From the NCBI GenBank assembly GCA_951406725.2, contig OX597836.1, positions 38,688,001 through 38,752,000 of the forward strand: a stretch of DNA of 64,000 nucleotides, given 5' to 3'. Position 1 is the stretch's first letter. Every line of letters starts with the position of its first letter. The stretch is from Octopus vulgaris (Eukaryota). This document shows positions 23,351 through 52,100 of the stretch, piece by piece. The notes under the pieces were generated by a model, which ran no database searches, was not told the DNA's origin, and worked only from the letters and a program-made list of their open reading frames with translations. Both the position numbers and the translations under genes were made by a program.

Positions 23351-23966
23351 CAGGGTGTCCACAAAGTCTGGGTACATGGAGTAAATAAAATCATAACATA
23401 AACAATTAAATATAAGAAATAATAAATCATAGGCGCAGGAGTGGCTGTGTGGTAAGTAGCTTGCTAACCAACCACATGGTTCTGGGTTCAGTCCCACTGC
23501 GTGGCATCTTGGGCAAGTGTCTTCTGCTATAGCCGACCAATGCCTTGTGAGTGGATTTGGTAGACGGAAACTGAAAGAAGCCTGTCGTATATATGTATGT
23601 ATATATATATATATATATATATGTATGAGTGTGTATGTCTGTGTTTGTCCCCCTAGCATTGTTTGACAACCGATGCTGGTGTATTTACATCCCCATCACT
23701 TAGCGGTTCGGCAAAAGAGACCGATAGAATAAGTACTGGGCTTATAAAGAATAAGTCCCGTGGTCAATTTGCTCGACTAAAGGCGGTGCTCCAGCATGGC
23801 CGCAGTCAAATGACAAACAGGTAAAAGAGTAAAAGAGTATTGTTAATCCCCATGTGGGTACATGGGGTAAATAAAATCATCATAACATAAAGGATTAAAT
23901 ATAAGAAATAATAATTTCTTAAAGTATGTGTTAATCCCCATGTACCCAGACTTTGTGGACATCCTG
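23351..23966. mobile_element. Tc1/mariner-type MITE with a nested SINE B
   Basis: TA duplications at 23349-50 and 23967-68; 29-bp TIR CAGGGTGTCCACAAAGTCTGGGTACATGG with one mismatch. Confidence 0.85.
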
Positions 23967-23969
23967 TAG

Positions 23970-29420: not shown

Positions 29421-29867
29421 ATTTTATATATGTGTGTGTGTGTGTGTGTGTATGTATATATGTGTATATATAAATATATATACATTTATATATATCTTCG
29501 TGAGTGATTAATGAGTGATTTGATTTTATTACTCATGAAGACGGCGAGGTGGCGTTTCTTCCGGTTATTTACGTTCTGACAGAGTTCAAATCCAGCCGGT
29601 GTCAGAGATCGATATAATCGACTAACCCCTACTCCTCTCAAAATTGTTGGCCTTATGCCAAAATTTGCAATAATTACTAATAACGTGGATTAAACTTCTT
29701 AAATACCAGAGAATTTATAGATGTCTGTCACTTCTTCATTACGACCCATACTGAAAAATTAACAATCAGGGACGGATAGAAGCCTTAAGCACTTGAAAGA
29801 TTTTGGTGTCCCCATATATTTGCCATTCTAAATGGTAACGATAAATAAACCATAAAATAAATATTTG

Positions 29868-30263
29868 GGATCTTTTCGGTTTGAACGGCAGTTTTTTTTT
29901 AAATGATTTCCACGTAACTAAACACTTTTAAACTTCGTATACTGGTAGAATGTGTTTATAAAACATCTTTTTCTCTTGGCTTTATTGAGAAAATTCTATA
30001 GTTTGTAAGATATTTGTTGTTTTTATTTTCTTCACTTTCTGCAATTTCAACCAATCAGTGACGTCTATTGAGGTAAAAAAAAACATTCTGTGCCGTATGA
30101 ATATGTCCCTCGTTTAAGAAACAGATTGGGTTTATTAACATTTGTGAAGAAAAATGATACCCTTCCCCCACCCAGCCCTAACCCTAAAACAGATTGAAAT
30201 GCAATAGATCGATTCTAGGGTTATAATTATGGGTGACAATTTCATATGACACCGAAAAGATCC
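29868..30263 (+). mobile_element. GGATC-TIR non-autonomous element, copy 1
   Basis: TIR GGATCTTTTCGGTTTGAACGGCAGTTTTTT (right TIR partly deleted); 11-bp duplication ATAAATATTTG at 29857-29867 and 30264-30274. Confidence 0.9.
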
Positions 30264-30370
30264 ATAAATATTTGTTTCAAACCGAAAAGATCCATAAATA
30301 TTTGTTTCAAACCGAAAAGATCCATAAATATTTGTTTCAAACCGAAAAGATCCATAAATATTTGTTTCAA
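30251..30370 (+). repeat. 4 x 30-bp perfect repeat ACCGAAAAGATCCATAAATATTTGTTTCAA (element end plus flank)
   Basis: Read directly from the sequence. Confidence 0.95.
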
Positions 30371-32565
30371 AATGAAACAAAACAGATGGAAAATAATGTT
30401 TCTTTCTGTATATAATTCCACTTGATTTATATTTGAAAAGTTTTCTCCTATTTTCCTTTTTTTTTAATTGCAAAATCTTTGATCAGATCCTCATTATGAC
30501 ACCATGAACACTTTAAATAATTCCGATAATAATAAACCACTCCGAATATTAATTTAGCAAGTTTAAAGTGATTTTTGTTTTTGTGCCATAAACCATTTAC
30601 AATTTCTGTGATGTGTGTGTATGTGTGTCCTGCTACCCCCACCACCACCACCACTTTTGCTTAACGGTTAATCCAGCGCTGGTAACAATTTCTAATCTAA
30701 ACATGATTTTAAAAGACTAGCAAAATTATGAAACTTCAGATTCACTCGCCTTCTGCTGAGTACATACGCGTGTGCGTAAATAATAGTACCTTAACCTGAA
30801 CATTGAGTATTCTAGTCACAAAGACACACAATTATATATAAGTAGGTGAATGAATTATCCTATGTTTATCGTCAGCATGGAAAATTCGTTTAACCGAAAC
30901 CTGGGTAGCAAATTCACGTCAGAAAACACGGTTGAGAAGATTGCATAATGCACCCTTTATTCCTTCGGAATGAAAATATGCTGTCTTCGAAACATGTGTC
31001 GAGAGTAAAGGAATTTTGTTAACATCTTCGTTCGACTCCATTCTTTCATTTATTCATATATATATACTTTTATTCTTTTACTTGTTTCAGGCAATTGATT
31101 GTGGCCATGCTGGAGCACCGCCTTTTAGTCGAAGAAATCGAACCCCGAACATATTCTTTGTAAGCCTAATGCTTATTCTATCGGTCTCTTCTGGCGAACC
31201 GCTTAGTTACTTCAGATGTATTTAGTGCAAGAAACAATTAAGTTTCTTCCTCTCGTATTTTACGTAGTTCGATATGTTTCTAACCGCTGAAACATGTTCT
31301 AGAGAGCTGTTGCAAACCTACGCAAGCGAAAGTGTGAAATACATATTCATATTGACAAGTAGAGATATGGTCTGTGAAAACTCCATTATATATAGTTCTC
31401 TCTCTCTCTTTGTGTGTGTGTTATATACATGCATACACATATACATACATATACTCTATATACGCGCACATATATACATATACATAGGAATTCTGAAAGA
31501 AGTCTCTATAAAAAACTTGTTTTTAAACACCGACTGGTTATGGGAGATCTACCAAAATAAAATAATAATCCAAGGGGTTCGTAGATAAAAAAAAAAGGTC
31601 TAGAACCACTACTATAGATAGACGTTGGATGTACAGAATCATCAGAACATGGGGCAAAAATGAATCTATTTGTGGCTCTTTTACGTTGAAATCCCTTCGA
31701 GATCAACTCCGTCTATCAAATAAATTACCGGTCAAATACTTGAGTCGATTTACAATCCTACAATATATCCTAAATATGAGAGAGATTATAAAATAGGTAA
31801 GCTCCAGTTTCTATAGACATTGCATTAAATGCCTTTTTCTCTCCGTCTGTGAACTGAAACATTCACCTATACAACACACATACCACTCCTAACGCCATGG
31901 ACTATGTTGCATAAAATAAGGCTTGTACTGCTTATTCTATCGGTTCTTCTGGCGGACCGCTAAGTTACGAGGACGTAAACACACCAAAACCGGTTGTAAA
32001 GCTATGGGTGGTGGGTAAACACAGACACACACACACACATATATTTATATATACTCTTTACTCTTTTATTTGTTTCAGTCATTTGACTGCGGCCATGACT
32101 TATTCTTTGTAAGCCCAGTACTTATTCTATCGGTCTCTTTTGCCGAACCGCTAAGTTACGGGAACGTAAACACACCAGCATCGGTTGTCAAGCAATGCTA
32201 GGGAGACAAACACACACACATACATATATACATATACATATTTACGACAGGCTTCTTGCAGTTTCCGTCTACCAAATCCACTCACAAGGCATTGGTAGGC
32301 CCGGGGTTATAGCAGAAGACACTTGCCCAAGATGCCACGCAGTGGGATTGAACCCGGAACCATGTGGTTGGTTAGCAAGCTACTTACCACACAGCCACTC
32401 CTGTGCCTATATATATATATAAAACTTACTGGAAAAGGATGCGTGGCGTTCGATCATATAATATATAAATATATGCATATATACATACACATATGTACAT
32501 ATGTGTCGCCATGATAGATCGTTAGCCACTACACACATTTTTTTCTCTCCTTGTTTTTTCTGTGT

Positions 32566-32605
32566 CCCTCTCTGTAGAAGAGCGTAGGCTCGAAACGTAA
32601 AAGAC
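32566..32605 (+). ncRNA. Minimal hammerhead ribozyme-like motif in a pLTR-type repeat (~32420-32700)
   Basis: CTGTAGA-A-GAGC-GTAG-GCTC-GAAA-CG-TA-AAAGA; core deviates from CUGANGA at one base. Confidence 0.55.
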
Positions 32606-33031
32606 TTATTTCTATTCCTGAGCGTTAAACTAATACATCTGTTTGTTTTGTACACCACCTGTCTTCGTCTTTTGTTTTTTTTTCATAAACTCTCCCTATT
32701 TACATACCAACATATATATGTATATGTACATGCATATATGGGTACAAGATATCAAAAAAAAAAAAAACGTTGAACACAATGAGAAACGAAAATATAAAGA
32801 CATGGAAACGAACCACAGCTAAAAGTACAACTACAAAGTCAAAGAAACTTGTAAAAACTTTAATATGATGAGGATTTACATATATGTATCTGTATGTAAT
32901 ATAAGGGAAATATCCGCAATAGATATTGCATGCTCCAATCATGCAACCATGGGTTCATCATATACAAAGCTAATGTTTACATGAATTTCTCATTTTCATC
33001 TCCCTATTTCTTCGCTAAAAGTAGAAGTCAG

Positions 33032-34147
33032 AGATCTTTTCGGTTTGAACGGCAGTTTTTTCTAGCGGTGTCATATGAAATTGTCACCCATAATTATGAC
33101 CCAAGTATCGATCTATTGCATTTCAATCTGGGTTAGGGTTAGGGGTGGGGGGAAGGGTATCTTTTTTTCTTCACAAATGTAAATAAACCCAATCTGTTTC
33201 TTAAACGAGGGACATATTCATACGGCACAGAATGTTTTTTTTTACCTCAATTGACGTCATTGATTGGTTGAAATTGCAGAAATCGAAGAAAAAAAACAAC
33301 AAATATGTTACAAACTATAGAATTTTCTCAAGAAAGCCAAGAGAAAAAGATGTTTTATAAACACATTCTACCAGTATACGAAGTTTAAAATTTTTTAGTT
33401 ACCTAGAAATTATGTTAAAAACAGCCGTTCAAACCGAAAAAATCCGATTTTGGAGTCCCCACAAGCAAACTAGTGAGCAGGCCAATCACAGAAGTATTTT
33501 AAGGGTCCACGAATGAAATTTTGCTTCAGATGTATTTAGTGCAAGAAACAACTAAGTTTCTTCCTCTCGCATTTTACGTAGTTCGATATATTTCTAACCG
33601 CTGAAACATGTTCTAGAGAGCTGTTGCAAACCCACGCAAGCGAAAGTGTGAAATACACATTCATATTGACAAGTAGAGATATGGTCTGTGAAAACTCCAT
33701 TATATATAGTTCTCTCGGATCTTTTCGGTTTGAAAGGCAGTTTTTTAAAATAATTTCCACGTAACTAAACACTTTTAAACTTCGTATACTCGTAGAATGT
33801 GTTTATAAAACATCTTTTTCTCTTGGCTTTGTTGAGAAAATTCTATAGTTTGTAAGGGATCTTTTTTTCTTCACAAATGTAAATAAACCCAATCTGTTTC
33901 TTAAACGAGGGACATATTCATACGGCACAGAATGTTTTTTTTTACCTCAACAGACGTCATTGATTGGTTGAAATTGCAGAAATTGAAGAAAAAAACCCTA
34001 CAAATATCTTACAAACCATAGAATTTTCTCAATAAAGCCAAGAGAAATAGATGTTTTATAAACACATTCTACCAGTATACGAAATTTAAAATTTTTTAGT
34101 TACCTGGAAATTACGTTAAAAACTGCCGTTCAAACCGAAAAAGATCC
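33032..34147. mobile_element. Composite GGATC element: copy 2 (33032-33445, -), 271-bp cargo, foldback copy 3 (33717-34147)
   Basis: Outer ends flanked by a 69-bp direct repeat, 32963-33031 and 34148-34216, with 5 mismatches. Confidence 0.85.
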
Positions 34148-34934
34148 TACAAAGCTAATGTTTACACGAATTTCTCATTTTCATCTCACTCTTTCTTCTC
34201 TAAAAGTAGAAATCAGATATTAAATCGTTCATCAATGTCAACAGTGGATGTGTGTGTGTGTGTGTGTGTTACCGCTTCGCTATGTTTAGAGAGGAGGTAA
34301 TACAAGCATTAATATCAAATTATTACCTGGCGGGCAACAGGCACATCAAATAATGTTGTATGGCCCAGGTCAGGCCAGATCAAAGTCAAGCAGATCTATT
34401 ATTGATCGAAGGCACTCTTTTAGCGAAGCCTATCCCATATTCGTTTTTCATACACAGTAGAAAATTCGGCTGTTGTCTCTAGTGGATCGATAGATCACTT
34501 AGTACTACCAGGGCTGAAATATGCAAATAAATGCATAGTGGCCACATCTGTGCTGAGAAACTTCAATCATTGTTTTCGTCTTCAAGCTTATGATTTCAAA
34601 TATGATGGATATGGAAGAGAAATTGCCCGCAGCCCTACCCTGTACAACATCTATTGTTGATTTTATCTGAAATAAGGTTTCAGCATTAGGAAAAATGAAA
34701 CTCAAGTACTTTCACCGAGAACGAGAAAGGTCGAGATGACCCTTTTTCCGTAATTACAACTCTAAGTATTCTGTAATATAACCCTAAGTATTGCGCACAA
34801 GATATACACATTCATATTGACAGGTAGAGACATGGTCCGTGAAAACTCCATTATATATAGATCTATGGATTTGTGTGTGTGTTATACATGCATAGACACA
34901 TATACATACATATACTCATATACGCGCACATATA

Positions 34935-35526
34935 TACATATACACATACGTATATATATATATACACGTATATATATATATACACAGATACACATACATA
35001 CATATATACATGCATATATATACACGCACGTACATATATATATATATACACGTACATACATACATGCATATATATACACACGTACATATATATATACACG
35101 TACATACATACATACATGCATATATATGCACACACGTACATATATATATACACGTACATACATACATGCATATATATACACACGTACATACATATATATA
35201 CACACGTACATACATACATATATACACGCACGTACATATATATATACACGTACATACATATATATATACACGTACATACATACATGCATATATATACACA
35301 CACGTACATATATATATACACGTACATAAATGCATATATATATATACACACACGTACATACATACATATATATACACACACGTACATACATACATATATA
35401 TACACAAACACACACATATATATATGTATGTATATATATCTATATATATATATATATATATAAATATATACACACACACATTTATCACCACTTAAAAGTG
35501 GATGTTGTGTCAACAATACACACACG

Positions 35527-35566
<40 letters not shown>

Positions 35567-35600
35567 TACACGTACATAACAATACACACACACACACGTG
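34935..35600 (+). repeat. Complex TA/CA-derived minisatellite with recurrent CACGTACATA units
   Basis: Read directly; accounts for the many YIYT/VCMY pseudo-ORFs. Confidence 0.9.
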
Positions 35601-35938
35601 TGTGTCTGTGTGTGAAAAAGATCGATAATGGATATTGAAACGCAACACTGGCACATTGCTTACACAAGGTGAATTGTTCTTTCACGCTACGAACATTCGA
35701 CACTCAAGTCTCTATAAATTATTTTCAGCATTTGAACAGAGTCAATCGAGTCTCACAATAAATGGGACACGTGTTGCTTAGCTCCCGGTCAGTTCTGATC
35801 CAGAAAAATCTATGGTTAAATATCTTCTCTGTAAACCGTGGTTCTCAACCATTTGTTTGTCTATGGACTCATTTAATTCCTATTTCACTCAACTGACCCC
35901 CTTGTTAATTATATTTTCACAACCAAATATTATAATTG

Positions 35939-36354
35939 GGATCTTTTCGGTTTGACCGGCAGTTTTTTAAAATAAATTCCACGTAATTAAACACTTTTAA
36001 ACTTCGTATACTGGTAGAATGTGTTTATAAAACATCTTTTTCTCTTGGCTTTATTGAGAAAATTCTATAGTTTGTAAGATATTTGTTGTTTTTTCTTCTT
36101 CAATTTCTGCAATTTCAACCTATCAGTGACGTCTATTGAGGTAAAAAAACAACATTCTGTGCCGTATGAATATGTCCCTCGTTTAAGAAACTGATTGGGT
36201 TTATTTACATTTCTGAAGAAAAAAAAGATACCCTTCCCCCACCCCTAACCCTAAAACAGATTGAAATGCAATAGATCAATACTAGGGTCATAATTATGGG
36301 TGACAATTTCATGTCACCGCTAGAAAAAAACTGCCGTTCAAACCGAAAAGATCC
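35939..36354 (+). mobile_element. GGATC-TIR element, copy 4 (full length, 416 bp), inside a hAT-like MITE (~35836-36490)
   Basis: Both 30-bp TIRs present; flanking duplication ambiguous (AAATATTATAATTG at 35925-35938 and 36381-36394). Confidence 0.9.
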
Positions 36355-37261
36355 GTAAATTGTATATAAAAATATCAATTAAATATTATAATTGTATTTA
36401 AAATATTTTGTGTCTTGTAGACTTATAACCAATTCCTTTAACAAAATGTTATAGGACCCCGCCAGGGGTCATATGGACTCCAGCTGGAGTTCATTATCTA
36501 ATGTGGTCGATCTTTTAAAGATAGTGTTTGATTTAGATGTTATTTCTAGCAGGTCGAGTTTCTTTCGCTTCAGATCTGATCAGCCAAATGTAGACTACGT
36601 GGCCGCAAGACATGCTTGAAATAAGAGCCAAGTTTCTCTCAAATTACATTACACATACAATAGGACATATTTGTATCGTCTAATCGAACATTAACTTTTG
36701 AAAAACAAACACTGGATGATCTCGCCTGGAACACTGCTGACCAGAGATCTGCTGATTCAGCGCTAAGCCGGAGCGAAACAACAAAGGCGGAATATAATTT
36801 ATTCTAATCCGAAATACACTATTTGTATAAAAGGTGGAATAGTTACAAACATGCCTTAGAATGACTACTGGATTAGTCTTGGAAAGCTACACGAGATAAT
36901 GTAGACTTTAGATACACCATGTTTGAATAACGGAATAGTCGTACTGGAAATAGCTTTGATCAATAATCTACTGGATCAAAGATGACCTGGGGTTAAACAA
37001 CAACCTCGTTGATTATATAAAGGGTGGCCAGATGCAAGTATTTTATACACACACACACACGTGTGTGTGTGAAAATGTGAGGGATATATTATCTGGATGG
37101 ATACCGTATTAGCTCTCAATTAAGTTCCAGTTAACGGCTAACCACAAAGATCAATATCTAACGTCTGTGACTACAATTAATTGTTAATCACTTCGTGAGT
37201 TTTCCCGATGGGTAATTCCGTGTGCTCTTCACTGGACGGTAAAAATTGTCTGAAGTGCATA

Positions 37262-37294
<33 letters not shown>

Positions 37295-37299
37295 GATAT

Positions 37300-37571
37300 A
37301 ATATATATATAAAAATACAAAATGGGACAAGAACGCAAAACATTCAAATAGACAATACAAAAAACGGACGGGTCATTCGAATCCTCTAATCTTCAGTCAA
37401 GAACCGGATCATCCTCGCAATTTCGGCTGATTAATCTTGAGATTGCTCCGATCTGGCCAGCCCCAAGGAAAAACTAAGCTACGAGCATTAGATTTCTTGG
37501 GAAAAGGATCGAATGTATACGAAACAAAACAGAAAAACGGACGATGTTACACGAATATAAATACAAAAAAC

Positions 37572-37605
<34 letters not shown>

Positions 37606-37640
37606 GGACAAAAACAACAGGCGTCTTTCGACTTTATACA
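37300..37640 (-). mobile_element. Penelope-like pLTR-type repeat with a decayed hammerhead; opposite-strand copy at 63750-64000
   Basis: 37415-37515 is the reverse complement of 63895-64000; minus strand CTGAAGA...CGAATGAC. Confidence 0.5.
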
Positions 37641-38794
37641 GTTATATATATATATATACGCGCGCGCGCGCTCAAAATTAAGAGGAATGACTACTAAAGT
37701 GGACACCCTATATGCTAAATATAGACGTCAAATCGCCATTACCACGAAGAATGTGTTCTCAAGAAAAAAAAAATTCCCAGCAAAACGCCAAAATGAAAAA
37801 ATTATGGCGTTTTTTTTCTTGAGAACACATTCTTCGTGGTATTTCGTCTGCCGCTACGTTCTGAGTTCAAATTCCGCCGAGGTCGACTTTGCCTTTCATC
37901 CTTTCGGGGTCGATAAATTAAGTACCAGTTACGCACTGGGGTCGATATAATCGACTTAATCTGTTTGTCTGTCCTTGTTTGTCCCCTCTGTGTTTAGCCC
38001 CTTGTGGGTAGTAAAGAAATAGGTATTTCGTCTGTCTTTACGTTCTGCGTTCAAATTCCGCCGAGGTCGACTCTGCTTTTCAGCCTTTAATTAAGAACCG
38101 GTTGTGTACTGGGGGTCGTTCTAATCGACTGCCCCCCCCCCTCACCCAAAATTTCGGCCCTTGTACCCAGAGTAGAAAAGAATATTTATTTTATGAACTG
38201 TTTTATATATATGTGTGCGCATATGTGTATTTACATATACATATATATATATATATATACACACACACACCCACATGACAGGGAAATTCCACCTCGGAAA
38301 TTTATCGATCTGTTATCTTCGGAAAGACTTGGAAAAGCTGTAAACAAGCTTTTAAAATAATTTGGGGCACACGACCTGTTAGTGGAATCAATTTGATGAA
38401 TTAATGTGGCGCCAATTACTTTAAAATGTGATGAGAGGATCAATTTATGTAGCTATATTTTCAATTGCTATCTTTTGAACAGTGAATAAACAAACGGCAT
38501 TTGTGTTTGGAAACAATTTTTTTTTTCCAGTTAATTTTTCGTAGAGGTTTCACTTTCTAAATTTCTTTGTCAATTTTAGCAGTTTTAGTCTTACTGTCTT
38601 CTCTGCAATTCGATTCTCCTCGGGAGTTTTTAATATTGCGTGAGTACCCCGTTGCAGCGTATTTTCCGATTCAGCGCTGACCCAACAAACCTATGATCAG
38701 AAGCATTCCAGCCACGACCATCCTGTCTTTGTATATCAGAGACAAGACGCATTTTTGTTGTTGTTGTTATTATTATTATTATTTTTTTTTTGTG

Positions 38795-39347
38795 GGCGAT
38801 CCTTCGGTATAAGTACACACGTGACTTTGTTTACATTTCTGAAGATAACAGAAACCCTTTTCTCCCACCTCTAACCCTAGCACAGGAGGCGCAATGACCC
38901 AGTGGTTAGGGCAGCGAACTCGCGGTTTCGATCCCCAGACCGGGCGTTGTGAGTGTTTATTGAGCGAAAACACCTAAAGCTCCACGAGGCTCCGGCAGGG
39001 GATGGTGGTGATCCCTGCTGTACTCTTTCACCACAACTTTCTCTCACTCTTACTTCTTGTTTCTGTTGTACCTGTATTTCAAAGGGGCCGGCCTTGTCAC
39101 TCTCTGTGTCACGCTGAATATCCCCGAGAACTACGTTAAGGGTACACGTGTCTGTGGAGTGCTCAGCCACTTACATGTTAATTTCACGAGCAGACTGTTC
39201 CGTTGATTCGGATCAACCGGAACCCTCGTTGTCGTAACCGACGGAGTGCTTCCAATCCCAATCCAACCCTAGCACAAACCATAACCCTAAAAAAAAAAAT
39301 TCTTGAAATGTATCTGGTACTTCTGGTACTTATACCGAAGTCATGCC
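38795..39347. mobile_element. GG-terminal MITE related to the GGATC family, with a nested SINE C (38885-39265, tail type 3)
   Basis: TIR GGCGATCCTTCGGTATAAGTAC / GGCATGACTTCGGTATAAGTAC; internal TTTACATTTCTGAAGA...CCCACCTCTAACCCTA shared with the GGATC family; SINE duplication AACCCTAGCACA. Confidence 0.8.
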
Positions 39348-39514
39348 GTTTTTTTTTTTTGTTTTTTGGTTGCCACATTTTGAGGGAGAGCCCATGTAGA
39401 GCAAACGTGGGTAATCTTTCTCAAGAAGCGGACCGCATGAGACATGGTTCGCTGCTTTGGCAGGTAACACTACAAAAAAAAAAATTCCAAGTAAATTTTC
39501 GCTAGGCGTGCCAG

Positions 39515-39623
39515 TCAGAAAGTCCCGAGGACCACAAGTTGCAGAGGCTCATTTAATGAGTGATCGGTGACAGTAGTATGGGTGACTACAGGTGATTCTA
39601 CGTCAATCAAGTCCTCAAATCCT
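39515..39623 (-). CDS. Candidate terminal coding exon of the micro-exon gene: (R)GFEDLIDVESPVVTHTTVTDHSLNEPLQLVVLGTF*
   Basis: Acceptor TTTATTTTCTGTTGAAG; phase 2 joins exon 40734-40666; non-repetitive, protein-like composition. Confidence 0.45.
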
Positions 39624-40563
39624 CTTCAACAGAAAATAAATATCATCATACTTGAAGCGATCTGGAAATCTTCGAGATTTGTCTTATATATATACTCTTT
39701 ACTCTTTTACTTGTTTCAGTCATTTGACTGCGGCCATGCTGGAGCACCGCCTTCAGTCGAGCAAATCGACCCCCGGGACTTATTCTTTGTAAGCCCAGTA
39801 CTTATTCTATCGGTCTCTTTTGCCGAACCGCTAAGTAACAGGGTCGTAAACACACCAGCATCGGTTGTCATGCTAAGGGGACAAACACACAAACACACAC
39901 ATACATATACGACAGGCTTCTTTCAGTTTCCGTCTACCAAATCCACTCACAAGGCTTTGGTCGGCCCGAGGCTATAGTAGAAGACACTTGCCCAAGTTGC
40001 CACGCAGTGGGACTGAACCCGGAACCATGCGGTTGGTAAACAAGCTACTTACTACACAGCCACTCCTGCGCTATATATATGTTTATGTATTCATATACGT
40101 AAATTATTAACAAGTGAAACTAATTAGTACATAGGTAATCGTTTTTTATTTCGTATATTTTCATTTGTCTTGCTTATTTTTACGCCTTGGTTTTTTGCTG
40201 AATTTTTTCTTGAGAATTTCTCCGTGGAAAATGGCGATTTTGACGTCTATTTCTAGTATACAGGGTGTCCACTTTTAGTGGTCAATCCTCTAAATTTTGT
40301 ATCTGAGCGTCAATAATACTTTAATTGTTCCACGTCCTGCGTTACTGTGTTTTTCTCTCTTTTTTTCTGTGTTTTCTTGTTTGGACTAACTTTATATATA
40401 TATATAGCAAGCGGATACATTTCCAAAGATTTAGTGGACTATAAATATACCCCGAAAGTATTCAGGAAAATCCACAAAGAAAAAAACCTAAAAAAAAATT
40501 CCCAATAATAATAATAATGTATTGGCTTTCAAATATATGTAACTTTTTATTTTTATGTCTGTG

Positions 40564-40598
<35 letters not shown>

Positions 40599-40665
40599 AT
40601 CGAGAGTGTATCGAGAGAAAGAGAGAGGGTGGGAAGAGAGATTTGGTTAGACCTATGACTTCAAC

Positions 40666-40734
40666 CTCAGTAGTTCTTCAATGTTAATTCCGAATATGTT
40701 ATGATGAACCAAGTTAATGGAATTGGTTTTCCAT
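40666..40734 (-). CDS. Candidate internal exon WKTNSINLVHHNIFGINIEELL(R); alternative acceptor at 40742
   Basis: TAG acceptor after a CT-rich tract; weak GAG|GTTGAA donor; open frame joins the terminal exon. Confidence 0.4.
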
Positions 40735-40966
40735 CTAGTTGGCTATCTCCGAGAGAGATAGAGAGAGTGCGTAAGCGTGTGTGTGTATGCGCATGTTTGC
40801 GTGTATGCCTGTATGTGTGAGTTGAAAAAGTGGGGCTGTTTTTTTCCCCACCAACCATTGATTAACCCTGATATTATTTAATCAAGAAACCTGAAATAAA
40901 TATTCATCTTGAGATTGCTTTTACACAGCACACGTACATACATACATACACAGTTTTATGTACATA

Positions 40967-41248
40967 TATGGCCCAGCGGTTAGGGCAGCGGACTCGCGGT
41001 TTCGATTCCAAGACCGGGCGTTTTGAGAGTTTATTGAACGTAAACATCTATAGATCCACGAGACTCCGGCAGGGTGGTGGTGGCGATCCCTGCTGTACTC
41101 TTTCGCCGCAACTTTCTCTCACTCTTTCTTCTGTTGGCCTGCTCGCTTAGCCAGCGGGGTGGCGTCATTTGAAGGCTAAAACAATGCAAAGCGCATTGTG
41201 ACCAGCGATGTGTAGCAACATCTGAAAGCCTAGTCGGTCACGGTGATG
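40967..41248 (+). mobile_element. SINE family C, tail type 4
   Basis: Shared head to CTTTCTCTCACTCTT, then a distinct tail ending GGTCACGGTGAT. Confidence 0.8.
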
Positions 41249-41464
41249 TGCATTTTTGTATACATACACACATATAAATGCTTCGATGTTGCATACGAGA
41301 TAAAGAATACTTCTTAAATGTAGCGCAGTTTGTTTTTTGTTTTTTTGGAAGCCGATGTTTAAACTCAATATTCTCTCACATTAGAATGTTCGTCGTTTGT
41401 CGACTTGAACGATTGAACCAATAAATTATTGGGAGTGAACTCGAATAGTGACATAATTAATCAC

Positions 41465-41511
41465 CAGTGTTGAAGGTATACGAATGGCATAGATTTTGAT
41501 GCCCCAGATTC
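41465..41511 (-). CDS. Candidate 47-nt exon ESGASKSMPFVYLQH; possible 24-nt exon at 41403-41380 follows
   Basis: TTATTAG acceptor and CTG|GTGATT donor; all three frames are open, so the frame is inferred from neighbouring exons. Confidence 0.35.
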
Positions 41512-41734
41512 CTAATAACATCGTTAAAAATGTATATTAATTGTTAGCTTTCAAAGATATGGATGGCGACTTGAATTTCTTTTTTTTTTTTTAAACTTTG
41601 TAGGTGTGGTTAAGAAGCTTGCTTCGTAACCACACAATTTCGAGTTCAATATCACAGCTACTTAATATAGCTTCGAGTTGACCACTATCTTGTGTGATTT
41701 GGGTAGACGGAAACTGTGAGGAATCTCATGTGTG

Positions 41735-41771
<37 letters not shown>

Positions 41772-42064
41772 CTTTATTGCCCACAAGGGGCTAAACATAG
41801 AGGGGACAAACAAGGACAGAGAAAGGGATTAAGTCGATTACATCGACCCCAGTGTGTAACTGGTACTTAATTTATCGACCCCGAAAGGATGAAAGGCAAA
41901 GAGGACCTCGTCGGAATTTGAACTTAGAACGTAGCGGCAGACGAAATACTGCTGAGCATTTCGCCCGGCACGCTAACGTTTCTGCCAGCTTGCCGCCCTA
42001 ATATATCTTCGAGTTGACCACTATCTTGAGTGATTTGGGTAGACGGAAACCGTGAGGAAGCTCA

Positions 42065-42096
<32 letters not shown>

Positions 42097-42316
42097 CAGA
42101 GAGAGAGAGAGAGAGCGAGAGAGATGTGTGTGTATCCCCACACTGCTTGACAGCCTCTGTTTATGTCCTCGTAACTTAGCGGTTGGACAAAGAGAGACCA
42201 GGTAGAAAACGAATCAGACTTAAAAACAAAATTAAGAACTGGGCTAGAGTTGTTTGATATAATCCTTCAAAACGGTGCCCCAGCATGGCTGCCGTCCACC
42301 GACTGAAACATGTAAA

Positions 42317-42356
<40 letters not shown>

Positions 42357-42597
42357 ATCCAGGATCTGGAATTATCCAGTAAAATGTTTTTGGTAGTTTA
42401 TTTTGTCTCTCTATCTACTTTCCCAGTGCTATATGAACATTTAATGTGGCTTTAGGGTCAGGTTTTGACTGCTATATCAGCATGGTGGTATATCTCAGAC
42501 ACCCTAATTTATAATTTTAAATAATTATTACCCGTGTAAGGTTTTTATTCCCATGCTGGCCTCTTGATAAGATCGATATTTAAATATCGATCTTATC

Positions 42598-42658
<61 letters not shown>

Positions 42659-42725
42659 ATACATATGGCGGTGCTCCAGCATGGTCATAGCTCGTGAGCT
42701 GAAACTAGATGAAAATTTTAAAAAA

Positions 42726-42759
<34 letters not shown>

Positions 42760-42900
42760 CAATCCGAAATTTCGAAGTCACTGTCAGCACTTCTTAGGAA
42801 AGAATAATAAAATATAAAATATGTACTCTACAAAAAGTATTGGATAACCCTTCAGTTTAATCTAAAATTGTTTTTATTACGATATAAAGAACAACAACAT

Positions 42901-42936
<36 letters not shown>

Positions 42937-42949
42937 CAGAAGTCCATAC

Positions 42950-43008
42950 TTTCTTGCCATTCAATAACTTGCTCATAGCACAAAAATCAAAAAAATTACG
43001 AGAATATC
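42950..43008 (-). CDS. Candidate 59-nt exon (G)YSRNFFDFCAMSKLLNGKK
   Basis: CAG acceptor and AAA|GTATGG donor; the only open frame matches the phase-1 end of exon 43164-43146. Confidence 0.4.
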
Positions 43009-43145
43009 CTGATTATTATTATTATTATTATTATTATCAATAAAAAAAACTGCAAGGTACGATAACAAAATTTCCCGATTTGTATTGTATAATACGCAGA
43101 AAAAAAAAACACAAAGAAATCTTAAACCTGGAATTCACTTTTTAC

Positions 43146-43164
43146 CGTGCCTTCCAATTTCATG
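43146..43164 (-). CDS. Candidate 19-nt micro-exon HEIGRH(G)
   Basis: TATTTATCAG acceptor and ACG|GTAAAA donor; phases 0 to 1 fit both neighbours. Confidence 0.35.
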
Positions 43165-43557
43165 CTGATAAATATCGATCGGAATAATTTCAATTTTTTT
43201 TTCTTATTCTTAATGTTGTGCAATGATCATGAGCAAGTTATTGCATCTTTTCTCAGGAAAAAGAATAGTAATAATATATTAATAATTCTTTTTAATTTGG
43301 GCACAAAGCTAGTAACTTTGAGGGAAGGGGGTCAAGTCGATTACATTGACCTCCTGTACTTGACTGGTACTCACACCAATTCTTTAAAAGTACAGTAATG
43401 CCTTGATATACGAGTTAATATGCTTCCAGAGATCGCTCATAAAGTGAAAACTCGTAAAACGGAGCAACAATTTCCCATAGCAATGTTATAAATTCTAATT
43501 CGTTCCCAGAAAAATATAGTTTATAATACTCGTAAATATCTGGAAATAAAACAACAG

Positions 43558-43673
43558 GGATCTTTTCGGTTTGACCGGCAGTTTTTTAAAATAATTTCCA
43601 CGTAACTAAACACTTTTAAACTTCGTATATGACACCGCTAGAAAAAAAACTGGCGTTCAAACCGAAAAGATCC
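43558..43673 (+). mobile_element. GGATC-TIR element, copy 5 (internally deleted, 116 bp)
   Basis: Both TIRs present; flanked by direct repeat 43372-43557 (186 bp) and 43674-43838 (165 bp, one ~22-nt deletion). Confidence 0.9.
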
Positions 43674-44434
43674 CACACCAATTCTTTAAAAGTAGAGTAA
43701 TGCCTTGATATACGAGTTAATAAGCGAAAACTCGTAAAACGGAGCAATGATTTCCCATAGCAATGTTATAAATCGTAATTCGTTCCCAGAAAAATATAGT
43801 TTATAATACTCGTAAATATTCTGGAAATAAAACAACAGTAGAATGTATCTCTGTTTGTGATGGATATTTATTATTGCAAAACTTAAAACTGAATAATTGC
43901 AACACAATGGCATTTTTATTTCTCATAACTATAATGAATTCCACCCCCATACTGTCAGTATTATACCTATTTCTTTATTACCCACAGGGGGTTAAACATA
44001 GAGGGGACAAACAAGGACACACGCAGGTATTAAGTCGATTATATCGACACCAGTGCGTAACTGGTACTTAATCTATCGACCCAGAAAGGATGAAAGGCAA
44101 AGTCGACCTCGGCGGAATTTGAACTCACAACGTAACGACAGCCGAAAGACGGCTACGCATTTCGCCCGGCGTGCTAACGATTCTGCCAGCTCTGTATTCT
44201 TTTCTATTCTAGGCACAAGGCCCGAAATTTGGGGGCAGGGGCCAGTCAATTAGATCGACCCCAGTACGCAACTGGTACTTAATTTATCGATCCCGAGAGG
44301 ATGAAATACAAAGTCGACCTCGGCGGAATTTGAACTCAGAACGTATAGATTTATAAATCCGCTAAGGATTTCGCCCGACGTGCTAACGTTTCTGACAGCT
44401 CTGTAATATCAACAAAATGTCATATCTTCCTTAC

Positions 44435-44462
44435 ATTTTGGCTATTTAAGGGACTCCAAACT
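44435..44462 (-). CDS. Candidate 28-nt exon 3 (R)VWSPLNSQN
   Basis: TCTCTTGTTGCAG acceptor and AAT|GTAAGG donor; phases 2 to 0. Confidence 0.5.
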
Positions 44463-44604
44463 CTGCAACAAGAGATTCATAACACATACAAAAAAGAAAT
44501 TTCAAGGTTTACCAACAGGTTTGAAAAATGGCCTAATAAACGGAAAAAAACAAATTTAATTGCAGTATAAGAAACAATAAATAACAATTAAATCAACACC
44601 AAAC

Positions 44605-44664
44605 CTTGACTTAAATCTTGGAGTAGATTTCTGCGAGGCAAAGGAAAGACTATGTTCAATTGAA
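44605..44664 (-). CDS. Candidate 60-nt exon 2 SIEHSLSFASQKSTPRFKS
   Basis: TATTTTTCTGTCGCAG acceptor and AAG|GTTTGG donor; symmetric phase 2-2. Confidence 0.5.
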
Positions 44665-45187
44665 CTGCGACAGAAAAATATTTCATTGAATCAAGTTATT
44701 CTAAAGTGTCTGCGTATATATAAGCCAATTTCGAATCGTTGTAGAATTAATTAGTGTTTTTGTTTCACAAAATACACAAAAAGTATACCACAAATAGAGA
44801 ACTGTATGGCAGATAGGTTAACAGGTGACGTGTATGTGTACGCGAACACATACATGCTTATTCGAAATATGTCCGTGTTTGTTTTTTAGCTTTAAGACGT
44901 CTTGCGAGAGTCTTCGTTTTTAAATAAAATACATCGTAATTACTGGATACTTTGTCTTAGATTCTTTTTGCAAACAGACGGGTGCCTATATATATATCAG
45001 AGGCGACTCCAGGTCATCAGCGTCACTCGGACTCATCACAGATTTCGCGTAAGACACGTGCCTGCTCGGAGAATTTCTTGTTTTTTCTTTTTATTTCTGG
45101 CTCCAAATGGCTTATGTTGTTTTTATATCTAGTACTATGCTATGGGTAAAAATAAAGCAAACCCTGCAAAACACAGCTGATCTTTAC

Positions 45188-45237
45188 GCACAGAATAACA
45201 GCAATCGAATAGTGACATCGGAATGCACAACAGACAT
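45188..45237 (-). CDS. Candidate first coding exon MSVVHSDVTIRLLLFC(A)
   Basis: ATG at 45237; GC|GTAAAG donor in phase 2; hydrophobic, signal-peptide-like stretch. Confidence 0.45.
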
Positions 45238-45728
45238 CAGCGATCTGGCTGTCGTCTGCACTCTTGACAAGAGTTGCTAGTTAGCTTTTTAGACCTACAA
45301 GACAAGTTCGTATTAGCCCCGAGTTGCTGCATAATTTTTCCTTCCTTAAAGAATATTGAATAAAACATAGAATTTGAAATACTTTTAATTTTTGCGATTA
45401 TCGATAACAATTCGGGCTGTAACTTCTGAGCCTGAGTCAGGCGTGTGTAAACGATGTCGAGAGATCGTCTGCTACGAATGATATTTTTTTGACACAAGAC
45501 GATCGCCAGACTCTGAACGAAAATAAATGGTGACCAAGCTCAATAAAATTTTTTTAAAAAAGCCCGAGTTATTGGCTGAAATTACATATTTGAAGTCAGC
45601 GTTGGCAGAAATTAAATCAGTTTGCAAATACACGTTCGCTTTACTAAATTTATACTCGGGCGAAGTCCGAGTGCCAGAGTCGCCATTGATTATATACAGA
45701 TATCGTTGCTATTATGTTAAACTGTCGT
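45238..45728. promoter_or_regulatory. Candidate bidirectional promoter / 5' UTR interval
   Basis: Repeat-free, CpG-retaining DNA between two divergent candidate ATGs. Confidence 0.35.
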
Positions 45729-45845
45729 ATGTCCAAACTTGACCAAATGCGTATTTTTCAATATTTATTTTTGCTCGCAATGGCCGGTTCTTTTCATCAA
45801 ACTATCGTATCACCAGCTGCTTCAGATGCCAAGATATCAAAAATT
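45729..45845 (+). CDS. Candidate first coding exon MSKLDQMRIFQYLFLLAMAGSFHQTIVSPAASDAKISKI (signal-peptide-like)
   Basis: In-frame ATGs at 45729 and 45747; basic-hydrophobic-small residue pattern; ATT|GTCAGT donor, phase 0. Confidence 0.35.
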
Positions 45846-45949
45846 GTCAGTGTAGTACAACGGTTTTGCTATGGAATGGTAAAACTAAATGGTAAAAAAA
45901 AAAGCAACGTTTTGGACTTACGACACTTTTGCACAATAACAACAATATA

Positions 45950-46490
45950 CAGTAATCCCTCGACTATCGCGGGTGTTAGATTCCTAAACCCTACGCAATA
46001 GGTGAACATCCAAGAAGTAGAAAACAGTGCTGTACTGTATATTATTTATTTTTATAATTTGTAAATATATATCTTTATATCTAAAGCTGAAGTTGTCTGT
46101 GTGTGGCAGGTTTGGTAGCCTTCAACTAACACTATCTCCTCCGAGACCCTACGACTAAAATTGGGAAATTCAAATCGGACCATGTTAAGATAAAAAATTA
46201 TTTACATAAAAAAGGTGGGTTTTTTTCTATGAAAATCCCTATTTTTTACGATTTTTTGACTGCTGTGTCGCCATTTTTCGGTGTATTTCAACCAGAAAAA
46301 ATGTTCACTTAAAGAGAATAAACAAGCTACATAATGCAAAATTTTTACTTTTCAAAAATTCCAATTCTAAAAGGTCGAAACAAACCCGAGCAACGCCGGG
46401 CGATACTGCTAGTTTTATTATAAATGCAAAACAACACGGCGGAGGAATCGACGTAAACATAAATGATAAACTGCGATATGGCGAGGAATT
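45950..46490. mobile_element. Tigger-type MITE interrupted by a Helitron
   Basis: TA-CAGTAATCCCTCGACTATCGCGGG left end; decayed right end GCGATATGGCGAGG; similar end at ~13189. Confidence 0.6.
46072..46412 (+). mobile_element. Non-autonomous Helitron, 341 bp
   Basis: A|TC 5' end, hairpin CCCGAGCAACGCCGGG at 46385-46400, CTAG|T 3' end, no TSD. Confidence 0.85.
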
Positions 46491-47647
46491 ATTACTCATC
46501 TTTCTCTAGATTAAGAAACCACCTAAGGGATAATACTTATCCAATATACTACTGGGCATGTACCCAATTATATATAGTCAAGTGCTTGTCATGACAATCT
46601 CGCAATTGAGTATTAGGTATGGGCGGAGGTAAAAGGTTATTTAGCCATGACTTATACGGCAAATAAGAGAAAATGGAGAAGATATACAATCGACAGACAT
46701 GATGCTAATAAACATTCAAATATGTCTATTTATTAAATTAGATAATTCCACAGCTATGTATGAGTGATACAGATTAACTGCATAAACAAGAATGTATATA
46801 CTTACATATATATATAGAACTAAATGAGTAAATATAAATGGGTGTACAGGTACTAATTCCTTACGGTCGTTTGTGCAACGAGGCAACAGAATCTTCCAGG
46901 TTATCGCCATTAGTTCTTTGATATGCAGGGATAAACAGACAAGGCTTGGATAATGGGTGTGTCCCTAGGCTTCTTCGGAGGGTCCAAGTGTTAGGGAGCT
47001 AACACGTATAAGAGTCGGTTAAAGATAGAGAAAGTGTGCTTATTCTTTTGAATAAAGTAGAGCAAGAATAAAATATAATAAAGTACAATGATTTGATGGG
47101 CCTAGTAAGGGAAAGTAAGGTGAAGACATCCAATAAAATGTTCATAAAAATCCATGGCATTCCATCCAGTGGTGGGTAGGTGAATAAAGTTACTTTCAGG
47201 AGGAATTTTGGCAGCCTGTAAATATTCCTCTGTAAAATTCGTCGACGTAAAAATTCCGTCGATGTTAGATTTGCCTTTATCCTTTTGGGAGTCGATATAA
47301 TTAACTGACTCACTCCCCCAAAATTTCAAGCCTATAATTGTAGTTTTTTCTTGGAAAGGAAAGCTATCATAATTATCTCAATGTTAGAAAATATTAATGA
47401 CATTTCCTGCTCTTCCCAAATCGGTCAGCTTGATGATATATTCAGAGCGAATATATCAGTAAATCAATGTCCACGAGGGGAAAATACGGAAGCTGGAATG
47501 CAGGAAATGATGGGGAGTCCGAATAAGATGCAGCATTTTGTATAGGTTTGTCCGGGAGACAGGATAATATAGTTGACGAAAAGTGGTGAGATTAGAATAT
47601 CAAATAGGCTTGGATGCAGTTAATTGATATCAAGTCATTAAATCAAG

Positions 47648-47955
47648 GGTACTACTAGCGACTAGCGAACCCGGTGCGCGCACTCGCGCATCCGTGCTAG
47701 CTAGTCGTAAGTAGTCGATCCTACAACGACTTGCTCGTTATGTTTGTATTTCAAGGCTGAATACATATCAAAGAAAATTAAATAATATTTTTCGAACAAA
47801 GTAAATAAAACGCAAAGTAAATTATTTTTATAAACAAACTAAGGTTAGGGTTACGTTTAAAAAATTAGGTTTAGGTTAGGGTTAAAAAGTCGTTGTAGGA
47901 TCGACTACTTACGACTAGCTAGCGCGCACCTGGACCACTGTTCGCTAGTAGTACC
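47648..47955. mobile_element. Merlin-like MITE, 308 bp
   Basis: 8-bp TSD AAATCAAG; TIR GGTACTACTAGCGA (fits GGNRM); 37-bp perfect subterminal inverted repeat; GGTTAGGGTTA motifs inside. Confidence 0.8.
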
Positions 47956-48691
47956 AAATCAAGTTACTAGTAACTTTAGTACTAGCATTAAATTCATTTA
48001 TAGTGTCTGAATTCTTTACAAATTTGCTAGGATTAAACAAACATGTTAGAGGAAAGTTATTCTATCCAGAGGGTAGTCGAACATAAATGACAATGAATGT
48101 CAAAATTAAACGTTAAGGAAGAATTAAACTCAGGCGTGAAGGCTGAGACTATCAAAAGAGCCACATGAAGTACAGAAATCGCAAAATCGTTCGTACATCG
48201 CTTAAAATGCCTTGCTGTATTTAGTAGCAACCTTTTACACCCGCAGCTCATAATCCACCCGGCGTTAAGAATTCAGACAACTTTGTAAACCATTCTGCAA
48301 AGTGTGCCTAACCATGCCGTGGATTGTTTTTAGATGTAATTTAAGACTTTAGAAAAGTCATTCATCTTGAAAACATATAATTTTGCTATATATAAATATG
48401 ATTTATTAGTAAGCAAGTTTTCAATGTATGTATGAGTGTATATATGTTAAGAAATTTTAATAGAGTTTTTTTAAAAACTTTCCGTGGGAAGTTCGCCAAT
48501 ATTTCGTTTCACTTTCTACGCTAGGTGCGCCAATAATTTTTAACTTGATCTCTGTTGCACCACTAAGGTTAAGAATAGAAACCGGTGATATATAGACACA
48601 CATTGAAACTACTTTGCAAACATAATTCCATATCGTATACCTTCCTCTGTCACCCATAATTTCTGTTTCTTATGTTTTAGAGACATCCCCC

Positions 48692-49127
48692 GGATCTTTT
48701 CGGTTTGAACGGCAATTTTTTCTAGCGGTTTCATATGAAATTGTCATCCATAATTATGACCCTAGTATCGATCTATTGCATTTCAATCAGTTTTAGGGTT
48801 AAGGTTATTTGGGGTTAGGGGTGGGGGAAGGGTATCACTTTTTTCTTCACAAATGTAAATAAACCCAATCTGTTTCTTAAACGAGGGACATATTCATACG
48901 GCACAGAATGTCTTTTTTTTTTTTACCTCAATAGACGTCAGTGATTGGTTGAAATTGCAGAAATTGAAGAAAAAAACAACAAATATGTTACAAACCATAG
49001 AATTTTCTCAATAAAGCCAAGAGAAAAAGATGTTTTATAGACACATTCTACCAGTATACGAAGTTTAAAAGTGTTTAGTTACGTGGAAATTATTTTTAAA
49101 AACTGCCGGTCAAACCGAAAAGATTCC
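48692..49127 (-). mobile_element. GGATC-TIR element, copy 6 (full length)
   Basis: Both TIRs present; flanked by direct repeat 48610-48691 and 49128-49216. Confidence 0.9.
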
Positions 49128-52100
49128 TACTTTGCAAACATAATTCTATATCGTACACCTTCCCCTGTCAGCCATAATTTCTATTTCATTTCACCTTATG
49201 TTTTAGAGACATCCCCTCCACCACAATCACCATTATAAATGTACAGGTGTCTAACAAGTTGTTTTACAACTTGTTAGTAATTATTTCAATGAATCTATTG
49301 TATTTTATAAAAAGACAGAATATCAGAAACATGGTTAGGTGGATTAATCTTGCACGAAGTCCAAACATAAAGGAACAGTCGCCTAAGTGCATTGTTTAAA
49401 TTATTTAAAAATGCTCTTTTAAAATGACGCACGCTCGTATTAAGCTCACCTCAATTTCAGCAGCGCATATTCAGTGGGGAATGGTTTTTGCACCATGGAC
49501 CGGTTTCATGCTAAGCAATTTTCCCACGGACAAAGGGAACACAACACAATAAAGTGCATAAAATATAATTTGATTATTACATCTCTTACCGTTTACTCAT
49601 TTCAGTCATTATACCGCAGCCGTGTTTGGGACATCGCCTTAAAGGCTTTTAGTTGAACAACAACTCGACTTCAGCACATTTTCTTTTTTGCTTTTATTAT
49701 TATTATTATTATTTAAGCCTGGTACTTATTCTACCGTTTCCTTTTTGCCAAATTGCTTAGATACGGCCACTTAAGCAAACTAGCATTGGTTGTCTAGAGA
49801 TAGACGTAATGTAAGCCCAACATCGCATGCGAAGGACTCAGCCTTCCTTCCTTCTCTCTCTCTCTCTCTCTCTTTTTTTTTGAAAAATGCCTTATATGGC
49901 ATCAAATACGATTATAAATTAACTCGTTTTTTTTTCTTTCAATTGTCAATTACAGAGTCCAGATGAAAACCCATAGTGGTCCCATATATTTATATGCAAT
50001 TCAATGTATAAGCAATAATAAACCATGAAATAATTTTTTATTTTTCAAGACGAAACAAAACTAACAATAAGATGGAAAATAACGTTTATTCTTGTATACT
50101 TCCGCTTTATTTATAGTTGAAAAGTTGTCTCCTACATTTTATAATTGCAAAGATCAGTGATTTTTTATTACCCACAAGGGGGCGAACAAAGAGGGAACAA
50201 CACAATCTGATTTGGGGTCAGATTTACGAATGGTTTTACACAGATGATGAATTAAAAAATTTTAACACATAATTACCAAATACAATAAAATCGAAAAAAT
50301 CGGATGATGGAACAGACCGGAAGAAATTACAGATGGAGTGGGGGGCGGGTTTAGTTCGGACCCCATGATCCCCGTCTCGCCACTGATACTTGGGTTTCAT
50401 CCTATTTCACATTTATGCGGTACCTATTTCTTTACTACCCACAAGGGGCTAAACACAGAGGGGACAAACAAGGACAGACAAACGGATTAAGTCGATTACA
50501 TCGACCCAGTACGTAACTGGTACTTAATTTATCGACCCCGAAAGGATGAAAGGCAAAGTCGACCTTGGCGGAATTTGAACTCGAAATACGGCTACGCATT
50601 TCGCCCGGCGTGCTAACGTTTCTGCCAGCTCGCCACATTTATGCGGTACCATCCATGTGCAACATCCGTGCTAATAATTGCAAAGATCAGATCATCACTA
50701 CGACACCATGAATACTTTGAAATTATATTTCCGATCATTTGAGACATCCAGAATATTATTTTATCAAGTCTAAAGAGATTTATTTGGTGCCACAACCCAT
50801 TTACCATTTCCATGGTGCCTCCCACTTCTCTTGATGACCTAAGCACGTGCTTATTTGGCTTAATGGTTCATCCAACCCTGACTACAAGGAATGGTTTCCA
50901 ACAATTTTGAATCTCTTTCAATCTCTTTTTTTTAAATATTGAATATTCCATGTGTCAGGATTTAGTCTGAATTTACATTTTTGCTTTTGATTTATGGTCA
51001 AAATAAACGTATTGATTATTTTTAAAAATTGATTAATAAAAAAGAAATGTGATGTTTATTTGTTCAACTCAGAAACCTTGGGATGTTATGGAAGTCGTAT
51101 CCTAACGACTTTGAAGTCGTGTCCTGACAACTTTGAAGAACGCATTCTTTGATATATTTATAAGTGTACTGAAGCCCCCGCCCCCATGTCTTGTAAATGA
51201 ATTTACAATGATTAATTATAATGCCCTGCTATACCTATCAAGGCAAACCAACAACATAACCTCAAGGAAGTAGTTTGATCTGGTTAACAAAATAGCAGTC
51301 AAATCGACTTCAAATCGTACCCTACTGTTTTAGAAAAGGCAGAACACATTAAACAATGTATTCCTAGATATACGATGACCAAGAGACCATGGTTATGGCA
51401 GAAAAATCTTGGATCATAGGTCTACTAAGTCTGACTTGACCCAGAGCTAAACAACACAGGCCAACAAGAAAACCTGTACAAGGTTGTTCCATCCGCTAGA
51501 AATAAGAACCAGATCTCCCTTTATTGTTTAAACTGGCCACATCTGGCCCAGATATTCTATTTGTTTTATATTTGAACTAGCCATATCTAACCTCTCACAC
51601 CTGACCTACACTGACATTCTAAAAATAAGTAATCACATCATTGAAACCTCAAAGCTGTAAGATAATGCATGAGTAATTCAAAAGAATTTGAGTGAAAAAG
51701 TATTACATTTAACAGAGTAATCTGAACACTAAAGGGTTAAATTACGACCTATGACCATAAAAAGTGGATAATATAGTCTTAGATCACTGGTTTCTTAATC
51801 TTTTATAGCTCAACAGTCCCCTGTCATTAAGAAATTTTACAAATACCCCATCATGAAGCTTTAGAAAAAGAGGTAATAATTGTTACAAATTTTGGCCAAA
51901 GGACAGCAATTTTAGTGGAAGGGTCTTAGCTAATACCATCGACCCTAGTACTTGACTGGTGCAGTCAAGTTTCAATTCATTGATGATACAATATTTTAAT
52001 TATGTTTCCATTACATTTCCATTTTTTAAAAAAAATTGTGTTTAAAGTATTTAAACACAAACACATTTAGATCTGGTTTAAATGTTTATATTTCTAAGAG

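Follow-up and report, generated by a model that had tools for sequence, protein, structure and literature searches.

Long direct duplications of variable length flank a ~415-bp inverted-repeat element in Octopus vulgaris

DNA transposons are classified in part by the length of the target duplication, which mirrors the constant distance between two active sites (PMC10045372). Departures from such a rule are on record for the bacterial insertion sequences IS1549 of Mycobacterium smegmatis and IS1634 of Mycoplasma mycoides, whose direct repeats range from 8 to 514 bp and for which no mechanism had been modelled by 2008 (PMC2266710), and, on a smaller scale, for IS481EU of parabasalids, a eukaryotic transposon bounded by terminal inverted repeats (TIRs) that leaves several duplication lengths, of ~4, ~15 and ~25 bp, within one family (PMC10045372). 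Here we describe a ~415-bp, non-coding element with 30-bp TIRs in one 64-kb window of Octopus vulgaris (contig OX597836.1, positions 38,688,001 to 38,752,000; coordinates below count from its first base), to which all our counts refer. At three of its five insertion loci the element lies between direct copies of 70, 82/90 and 186/165 bp of unique local DNA that adjoin its tips within 1 base on both sides. An earlier sequence-only reading of the same DNA had proposed an unusual integration route for this family, pointing among other precedents to the RTE-1 retrotransposon of C. elegans, which reportedly also makes long variable duplications.

The octopus element resembles the IS1634 family in being TIR-bounded and flanked by long, variable direct repeats, and differs from it in kind: the bacterial elements measure 1.5-2 kb and encode a transposase, whereas the octopus element is non-coding and eukaryotic, and its ends start with GG where the available description of the family gives a terminal C consensus (PMC2266710). 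Compared by footprint alone, it would appear to work like IS1549 and IS1634. IS481EU shares with it the combination of eukaryotic host, TIRs and several duplication lengths, but the termini of that family (TGT..ACA or TNT..AYA) and its duplications of at most ~25 bp set it apart from an element with GGATC..GATCC ends and duplications of 11-186 bp (PMC10045372). The available open-access literature, a scope that leaves aside subscription journals, Repbase and Dfam, yielded no eukaryotic TIR family with duplications above ~25 bp, and 16-mers of the TIR had no match in open-access paper texts. The feature is somewhat smaller than first stated, and it is the long flanks, beyond ~25 bp, that set the element apart from the TIR families found in this literature.

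Searching the window with the 30-mer TIR returned 10 matches at ≤3 mismatches, against none in 100 shuffles, and two further tips were recognized: the tip at 30263 is shortened, and that at 34147 carries an additional A. BLAST and alignment assign these to six pieces at five loci, so that the six ~415-bp copies counted previously hold as pieces with 30-bp TIRs rather than as complete elements: four are near full length, one is a 116-bp derivative, and one, at 33717-34147, is a chimera of two left arms to which we return below. The other five pieces are as follows.

29868..30263, plus strand: copy 1, near full length, whose right TIR lacks ~27 internal bp, the deletion falling at an ACCG microhomology
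33033..33445, minus strand: copy 2, full length by alignment
35939..36354, plus strand: copy 4, full length by alignment
43558..43673, plus strand: copy 5, a 116-bp internal-deletion derivative with both TIRs kept
48692..49127, minus strand: copy 6, full length by alignment

Full-length copies diverge from one another by 4.0-6.1% (4.9% as a single figure). Every one of the 12 tips extends to the terminal GGATC, give or take a base; none carries a tail, and the damage that the copies have suffered is internal rather than at the tips. The internal motif CCCTAACCCTA, proposed earlier as common to the family, is exact in three pieces and has one mismatch in a fourth; it is absent from the other two and occurs four times outside the family. 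The single-strand fold of the element scores z = -5.6, a value dominated by the TIR pair and adding no information of its own. Elsewhere, 60 bp at 38826-38885 and 39250-39300, split by another SINE-like (short interspersed nuclear element) repeat, are 81% identical to the element interior around the CCCTAACCC motif; no TIR matching the element's was found there. Being short, non-coding, bounded by TIRs at both ends and present as dispersed similar copies (five loci in 64 kb), the element has the attributes of a miniature inverted-repeat transposable element (MITE), apart from the short duplication of fixed length, in place of which it shows 11, 70, 82-90 and 186 bp and one doubtful case. It is likely a MITE, moved by a putative transposase encoded elsewhere.

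Duplications were called by aligning 400 bp on each side of the element, with the following results.

29857..29867 (left) and 30264-30274 (right), plus strand: 11-bp duplication at copy 1, perfect (11/11)
30251..30371, plus strand: four identical 30-bp units, each made of 19 bp of the right tip and the 11-bp duplication
32963..33032 (left) and 34148..34217 (right), plus strand: 70-bp duplication at the compound locus, 65/70 identical; 69 bp when its first base is assigned to the element
43372..43557 (left) and 43674..43838 (right), plus strand: 186/165-bp duplication at copy 5, with 158 identities, 6 mismatches and 23 gap columns
48610..48691 (left) and 49128..49216 (right), plus strand: 82/90-bp duplication at copy 6, with 77 identities, 5 mismatches and an 8-bp indel

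The duplications of 11, 186 and ~82 bp that the sequence-only reading had reported at copies 1, 5 and 6 are thus confirmed, the right copy at copy 5 being 165 bp long with a 22-bp deletion and the boundaries at copy 6 being fixed to 1 base (48609-10 / 49127-8). The reported 69-bp pair is also present, its length depending on the choice of boundary, although it brackets not a single copy but the whole 1.1-kb compound at 33033-34147, neither part of which has a flanking repeat alone. No short fixed length recurs among these loci, the duplicated DNA of the long pairs has no third copy in the window, and no target motif is shared at either end of the five loci. The four 30-bp units next to copy 1, which are 100% identical and amount to a minisatellite seeded at a transposon end, likely come from recent slippage.

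A repeat of equal strength is present in the flanks of 31 among 1500 random 415-bp intervals and adjoins both ends of only two, both of them in a tandem SINE cluster near 60250. The feature is real and beyond chance, with three firm long cases in five loci. Across the three long pairs, 16 of 316 aligned sites differ (5.1%, 95% interval 2.9-8.1%), single pairs being 4-7% diverged and carrying indels. Judged by this divergence, the long duplicates and the element copies appear to be about the same age (5.1% vs 4.9%), which would date the duplications to the spread of the family; the long pairs are not an assembly doubling and are probably not older than the insertions. At copy 1, one paralogous empty site is available: the host repeat has a paralog near 50010-50060 in which the 11-bp stretch is present once. 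Furthermore, ten further TIR or hairpin elements from the window, hand-picked and with approximate ends, all lack a long adjoining repeat, as against its presence at three of the five family loci (Fisher p = 0.022).

Ends that start with GG, as those of the octopus element do, are common to several superfamilies of DNA transposon, Merlin among them. Merlin elements, abundant in Octopus bimaculoides, have 5'-GG termini and TIRs of 24-462 bp, both of which agree with the present element, but duplicate 8-9 bp, a length seen at none of the five loci (PMC8101967). Similarly, the RR..YY termini of Kolobok fit, whereas its TTAA (or 3-5 bp) duplication does not (PMC9587614). Replitron-1 of Chlamydomonas is a DNA element with variable-length duplications, but its HUH enzyme, short direct terminal repeats, RG target and fuzzy right end (10.1101/2022.12.15.520654) have no counterpart here: the ends are inverted, and RG precedes the left tip at one of five loci. 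A curated annotation of Octopus vulgaris lists unclassified TIR and MITE families (PMC13282606), and its repeat library may already include the ~415-bp family; the 5,371 characters of one of its supplements contain no match to the element. The window also holds a separate 308-bp TIR element at 47648-47955 (region 47640-47963), which starts with GGTACT, has a perfect 8-bp duplication, contains repeats of the GGGTTA type and fits a Merlin-like assignment. The idea that CCCTAACCCTAA links the long duplications to a telomeric role was considered and ruled out, a similar motif being present in this element with its 8-bp duplication.

We propose, at a probability of about 0.45, that the long duplications arose when the element ends were joined independently to the two target strands at insertion. 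A transposase acting in trans would join each end to its target strand separately, the strand joints would lie 10 to about 190 bases apart, and the stretch between them would be copied by the host's replication or repair, leaving a direct duplication. We infer the involvement of a transposase because the tips are precise and symmetric, and if the duplication corresponds to the distance between the strand joints, its spread of 11-186 bp would mean that their spacing is not fixed. Uncoupled strand transfer is also the best fit among the routes that the sequence-only reading had offered. The general case of that reading for an unusual integration or resolution step is supported by duplications that stop at the tips, match the elements in age and do not occur at any of the 10 TIR or hairpin elements used for comparison. 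By contrast, the suggested link of 186 bp to Okazaki fragments or nucleosomes falls away, this being one length among 11, 70, 82-90 and 186 bp. More tentatively, the element could represent an animal TIR lineage whose transposase routinely makes duplications of ~10 to ~200 bases in one step.

The alternative that survives best, although we think it rather unlikely, has two steps: an ordinary insertion with a short duplication, followed by local one-ended or sister-chromatid re-transposition that yields a flanking duplication or deletion, in a scheme that includes hybrid element insertion and reversed-end transposition. The sequence-only reading had not raised such secondary events, which find some support in the compound locus at 33033-34147, where copy 2 is followed by four further pieces.

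33446..33520, no strand assigned: 75 bp of filler that adjoins copy 2 precisely at its left tip and has no second copy in the window
33521..33716, plus strand: 196-bp copy of 31207-31402, 190/196 identical, joined exactly to a left tip
33717..33856, plus strand: left arm of a different copy, 140 bp
33854..34147, minus strand: local duplicate of 33153-33445, with 279 identities and 13 mismatches, meeting the arm at an AAG microhomology joint

Four diagnostic bases in 33854-34147 are common to copy 2 and no other copy, two more candidate columns having been left out (one for an alignment shift, one for lying outside the clean alignment of the duplicated part), and the presumed donor stretch of the 196-bp piece lies 2.1 kb away. 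The arrangement suggests that family ends were joined singly to nearby DNA and that the break was closed by template switching, as described for fillers of animal TIR elements, among which the capture of neighbouring DNA through gap filling is common (PMC8277862). The unique stretch to which the 196-bp piece belongs occurs in three partial copies within 3.7 kb (31207-31484, 33521-33716 and 34801-34944).

A two-step history would account for the two extra junctions of this locus, which lie exactly at TIR tips, and for the 293-bp local duplicate of copy 2; copy 1 could then carry the ordinary duplication length and copy 4 a reciprocal deletion, and the matching age of duplicates and elements fits as well. 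It is also expected to produce deletions about as often as duplications, yet at most one of the five loci looks deleted. P and Ac/Ds elements undergo alternative transposition of this sort, in which transposase rearranges the flanking DNA and produces tandem duplications whose ends coincide with element tips, but there as secondary events beside a fixed 8-bp duplication, whereas here long duplications are found at a majority of five loci (PMC3744419). We favour one-step joining because two steps would require a secondary event at most loci (3 or 4 of 5), because no short length recurs, and because nearby TIR elements are unaffected (0/10). The two histories leave identical structures at any single locus and would be separated only by the distribution of duplication lengths by age.

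Less probable again is a property of the host, by which repair would turn staggered nicks or breaks into tandem duplications and take up whatever mobile DNA is available. The window does contain local duplications that enclose no TIR element (7792/7927 and 31339/34801), and it contains long duplications around SINEs, a point that goes beyond the sequence-only reading. A tRNA-type SINE at 41761-41998 (minus strand) lies between 98-bp copies, 90 bp of them identical (41663/41999; span 41663-42096), other copies of its family having 14-19 bp duplications. A SINE-like copy at 23341-23977, within a presumably Tc1-like hairpin element, has a duplication of 57-60 bp (23369/23855) that lies 14 bp off its end, with a 14-bp templated piece at one junction. 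We tested 42 other repeat intervals, of which 37 are SINE-like and 10 of these have a readable duplication; eight of the 10 measure just 13-19 bp, the remainder being the two long cases. Long duplications thus occur in 2/37 SINE-like intervals as against 3/5 family loci (p = 0.008), a comparison in which many intervals are truncated, boundaries are approximate and one locus is counted twice. Moreover, the 10 other TIR or hairpin elements have none, and repair capture would be expected to trim the ends of what it captures. The SINE cases need no host rule, since long variable duplications are expected of insertion by retrotransposons without long terminal repeats (non-LTR) itself (PMC9977147).

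Retroposition, in which a long interspersed nuclear element (LINE) of the RTE, R4 or similar type would copy the element through RNA and nick the second strand at a wide spacing, is very unlikely, and the RTE-driven version put forward earlier is a poor fit. The footprints of LINEs can indeed be long, with a median of 900 bp for Dualen-4b and a length of 126 bp for R9, though these are retrotransposons without TIRs (PMC9977147), and the SINE duplications of the window reach 98 bp. DNA-transposon sequences have also been retroposed in primates, but the retro-DNAs described there lack TIRs and have 3' tails and 5' truncations (PMC11195612), whereas the octopus element keeps 12 of 12 tips intact and tailless and is damaged internally. 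Nor do the five loci share a target motif at either end, and the spread of lengths is unlike the 13-19 bp typical of SINEs here. Finally, that the tandem pairs pre-existed or are assembly artefacts, the element having landed at a junction by chance, is scarcely credible: local duplications are present in the window and the empty site covers no long case, but the pairs differ by 4-7% and carry indels, unlike an assembly doubling, are as old as the elements, and meet them within 1 base at three loci, against 2/1500 by chance, both in a tandem array.

Several observations weigh against one-step, uncoupled joining. The loci number only five, and the paralogous empty-site evidence covers the 11-bp target of copy 1 and none of the long duplications. 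Of 21 sequencing runs listed, nine contain part of 43200-44000, around copy 5, shares that carry no weight as evidence. At copy 4, which sits in an older host repeat that we take to be hAT-like, the duplication of 35-40 bp suspected earlier is doubtful, and there may be none: an anchored alignment of 35/40 bp outscores 149 of 150 AT-rich controls, yet just 14 bp of it match perfectly and these begin 26 bp from the right tip, the pair is far more diverged than the others, and the fit to a distant paralog of the host repeat is better when no 35-40 bp copy is taken out (scores 71.9 and 73.2 vs 52.7 and 63.0). Long duplications in the window are not unique to the ~415-bp family, and restricting the SINE comparison to readable duplications (2/10 vs 3/5) leaves a difference that is not significant (p = 0.25). 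The compound locus displays later rearrangement at TIR tips of the kind that a two-step history predicts, and one locus cannot tell one step from two. A coding partner or relative of the element, whether with the DDE_Tnp_IS1595 transposase of Merlin or with one of IS1634 type, was found neither among the open reading frames (ORFs) of the window nor in scans of metagenomes and viral contigs: none of the 72 ORFs is coding-like or encodes a transposase, a Pfam search of five of the 72 gave no matches, and the TIR scans returned zero in both collections. Three loci from a paired-tip pattern scan were dropped, as they have no likeness past the tip and no flanking repeat: one lies in a bacterial coding region and the other two in palindromic contigs. 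Both of these metagenome contigs (L002 1001-1418 and L003 306-739) are long perfect palindromes, likely amplification chimeras, and are unrelated to the element.

The surrounding DNA has a guanine-plus-cytosine content of 32-45% in 2-kb steps and is rich in microsatellites and SINE-like repeats, and no Rfam match falls in 29500-49500. The SINEs, which we take to be like octopus tRNA-derived SINEs, include head-to-tail dimers of the tRNA type with a spacing of 183-227 bp at 9700-10071, 12425-12856, 22400-22870, 37800-38184, 43962-44405 and 62745-63139. An old 92-bp direct repeat at 7792-8018 is 77% identical around a 43-bp spacer, in which no TIR remnant was seen; a perfect 31-bp inverted repeat at 4736-5028 has arms 293 bp apart, one of them inside a SINE-like repeat; a 323-bp near-palindromic element at 63426-63748 has long TIRs and no clear duplication; and a tandem array at 11237-11917 consists of 112-bp units that are 92-94% identical.

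If duplications of 70-190 bp are routine for this family, they would need a strand-transfer or resolution step different from that of known TIR transposons, which is the same question that IS1549 and IS1634 pose, and the octopus element would be a eukaryotic counterpart of their unexplained footprint, with many natural events on which to map that step. MITE finders that require a short duplication would be expected to miss such copies. For the octopus genome itself, the family would be a steady source of small tandem duplications, one being gained with every insertion.

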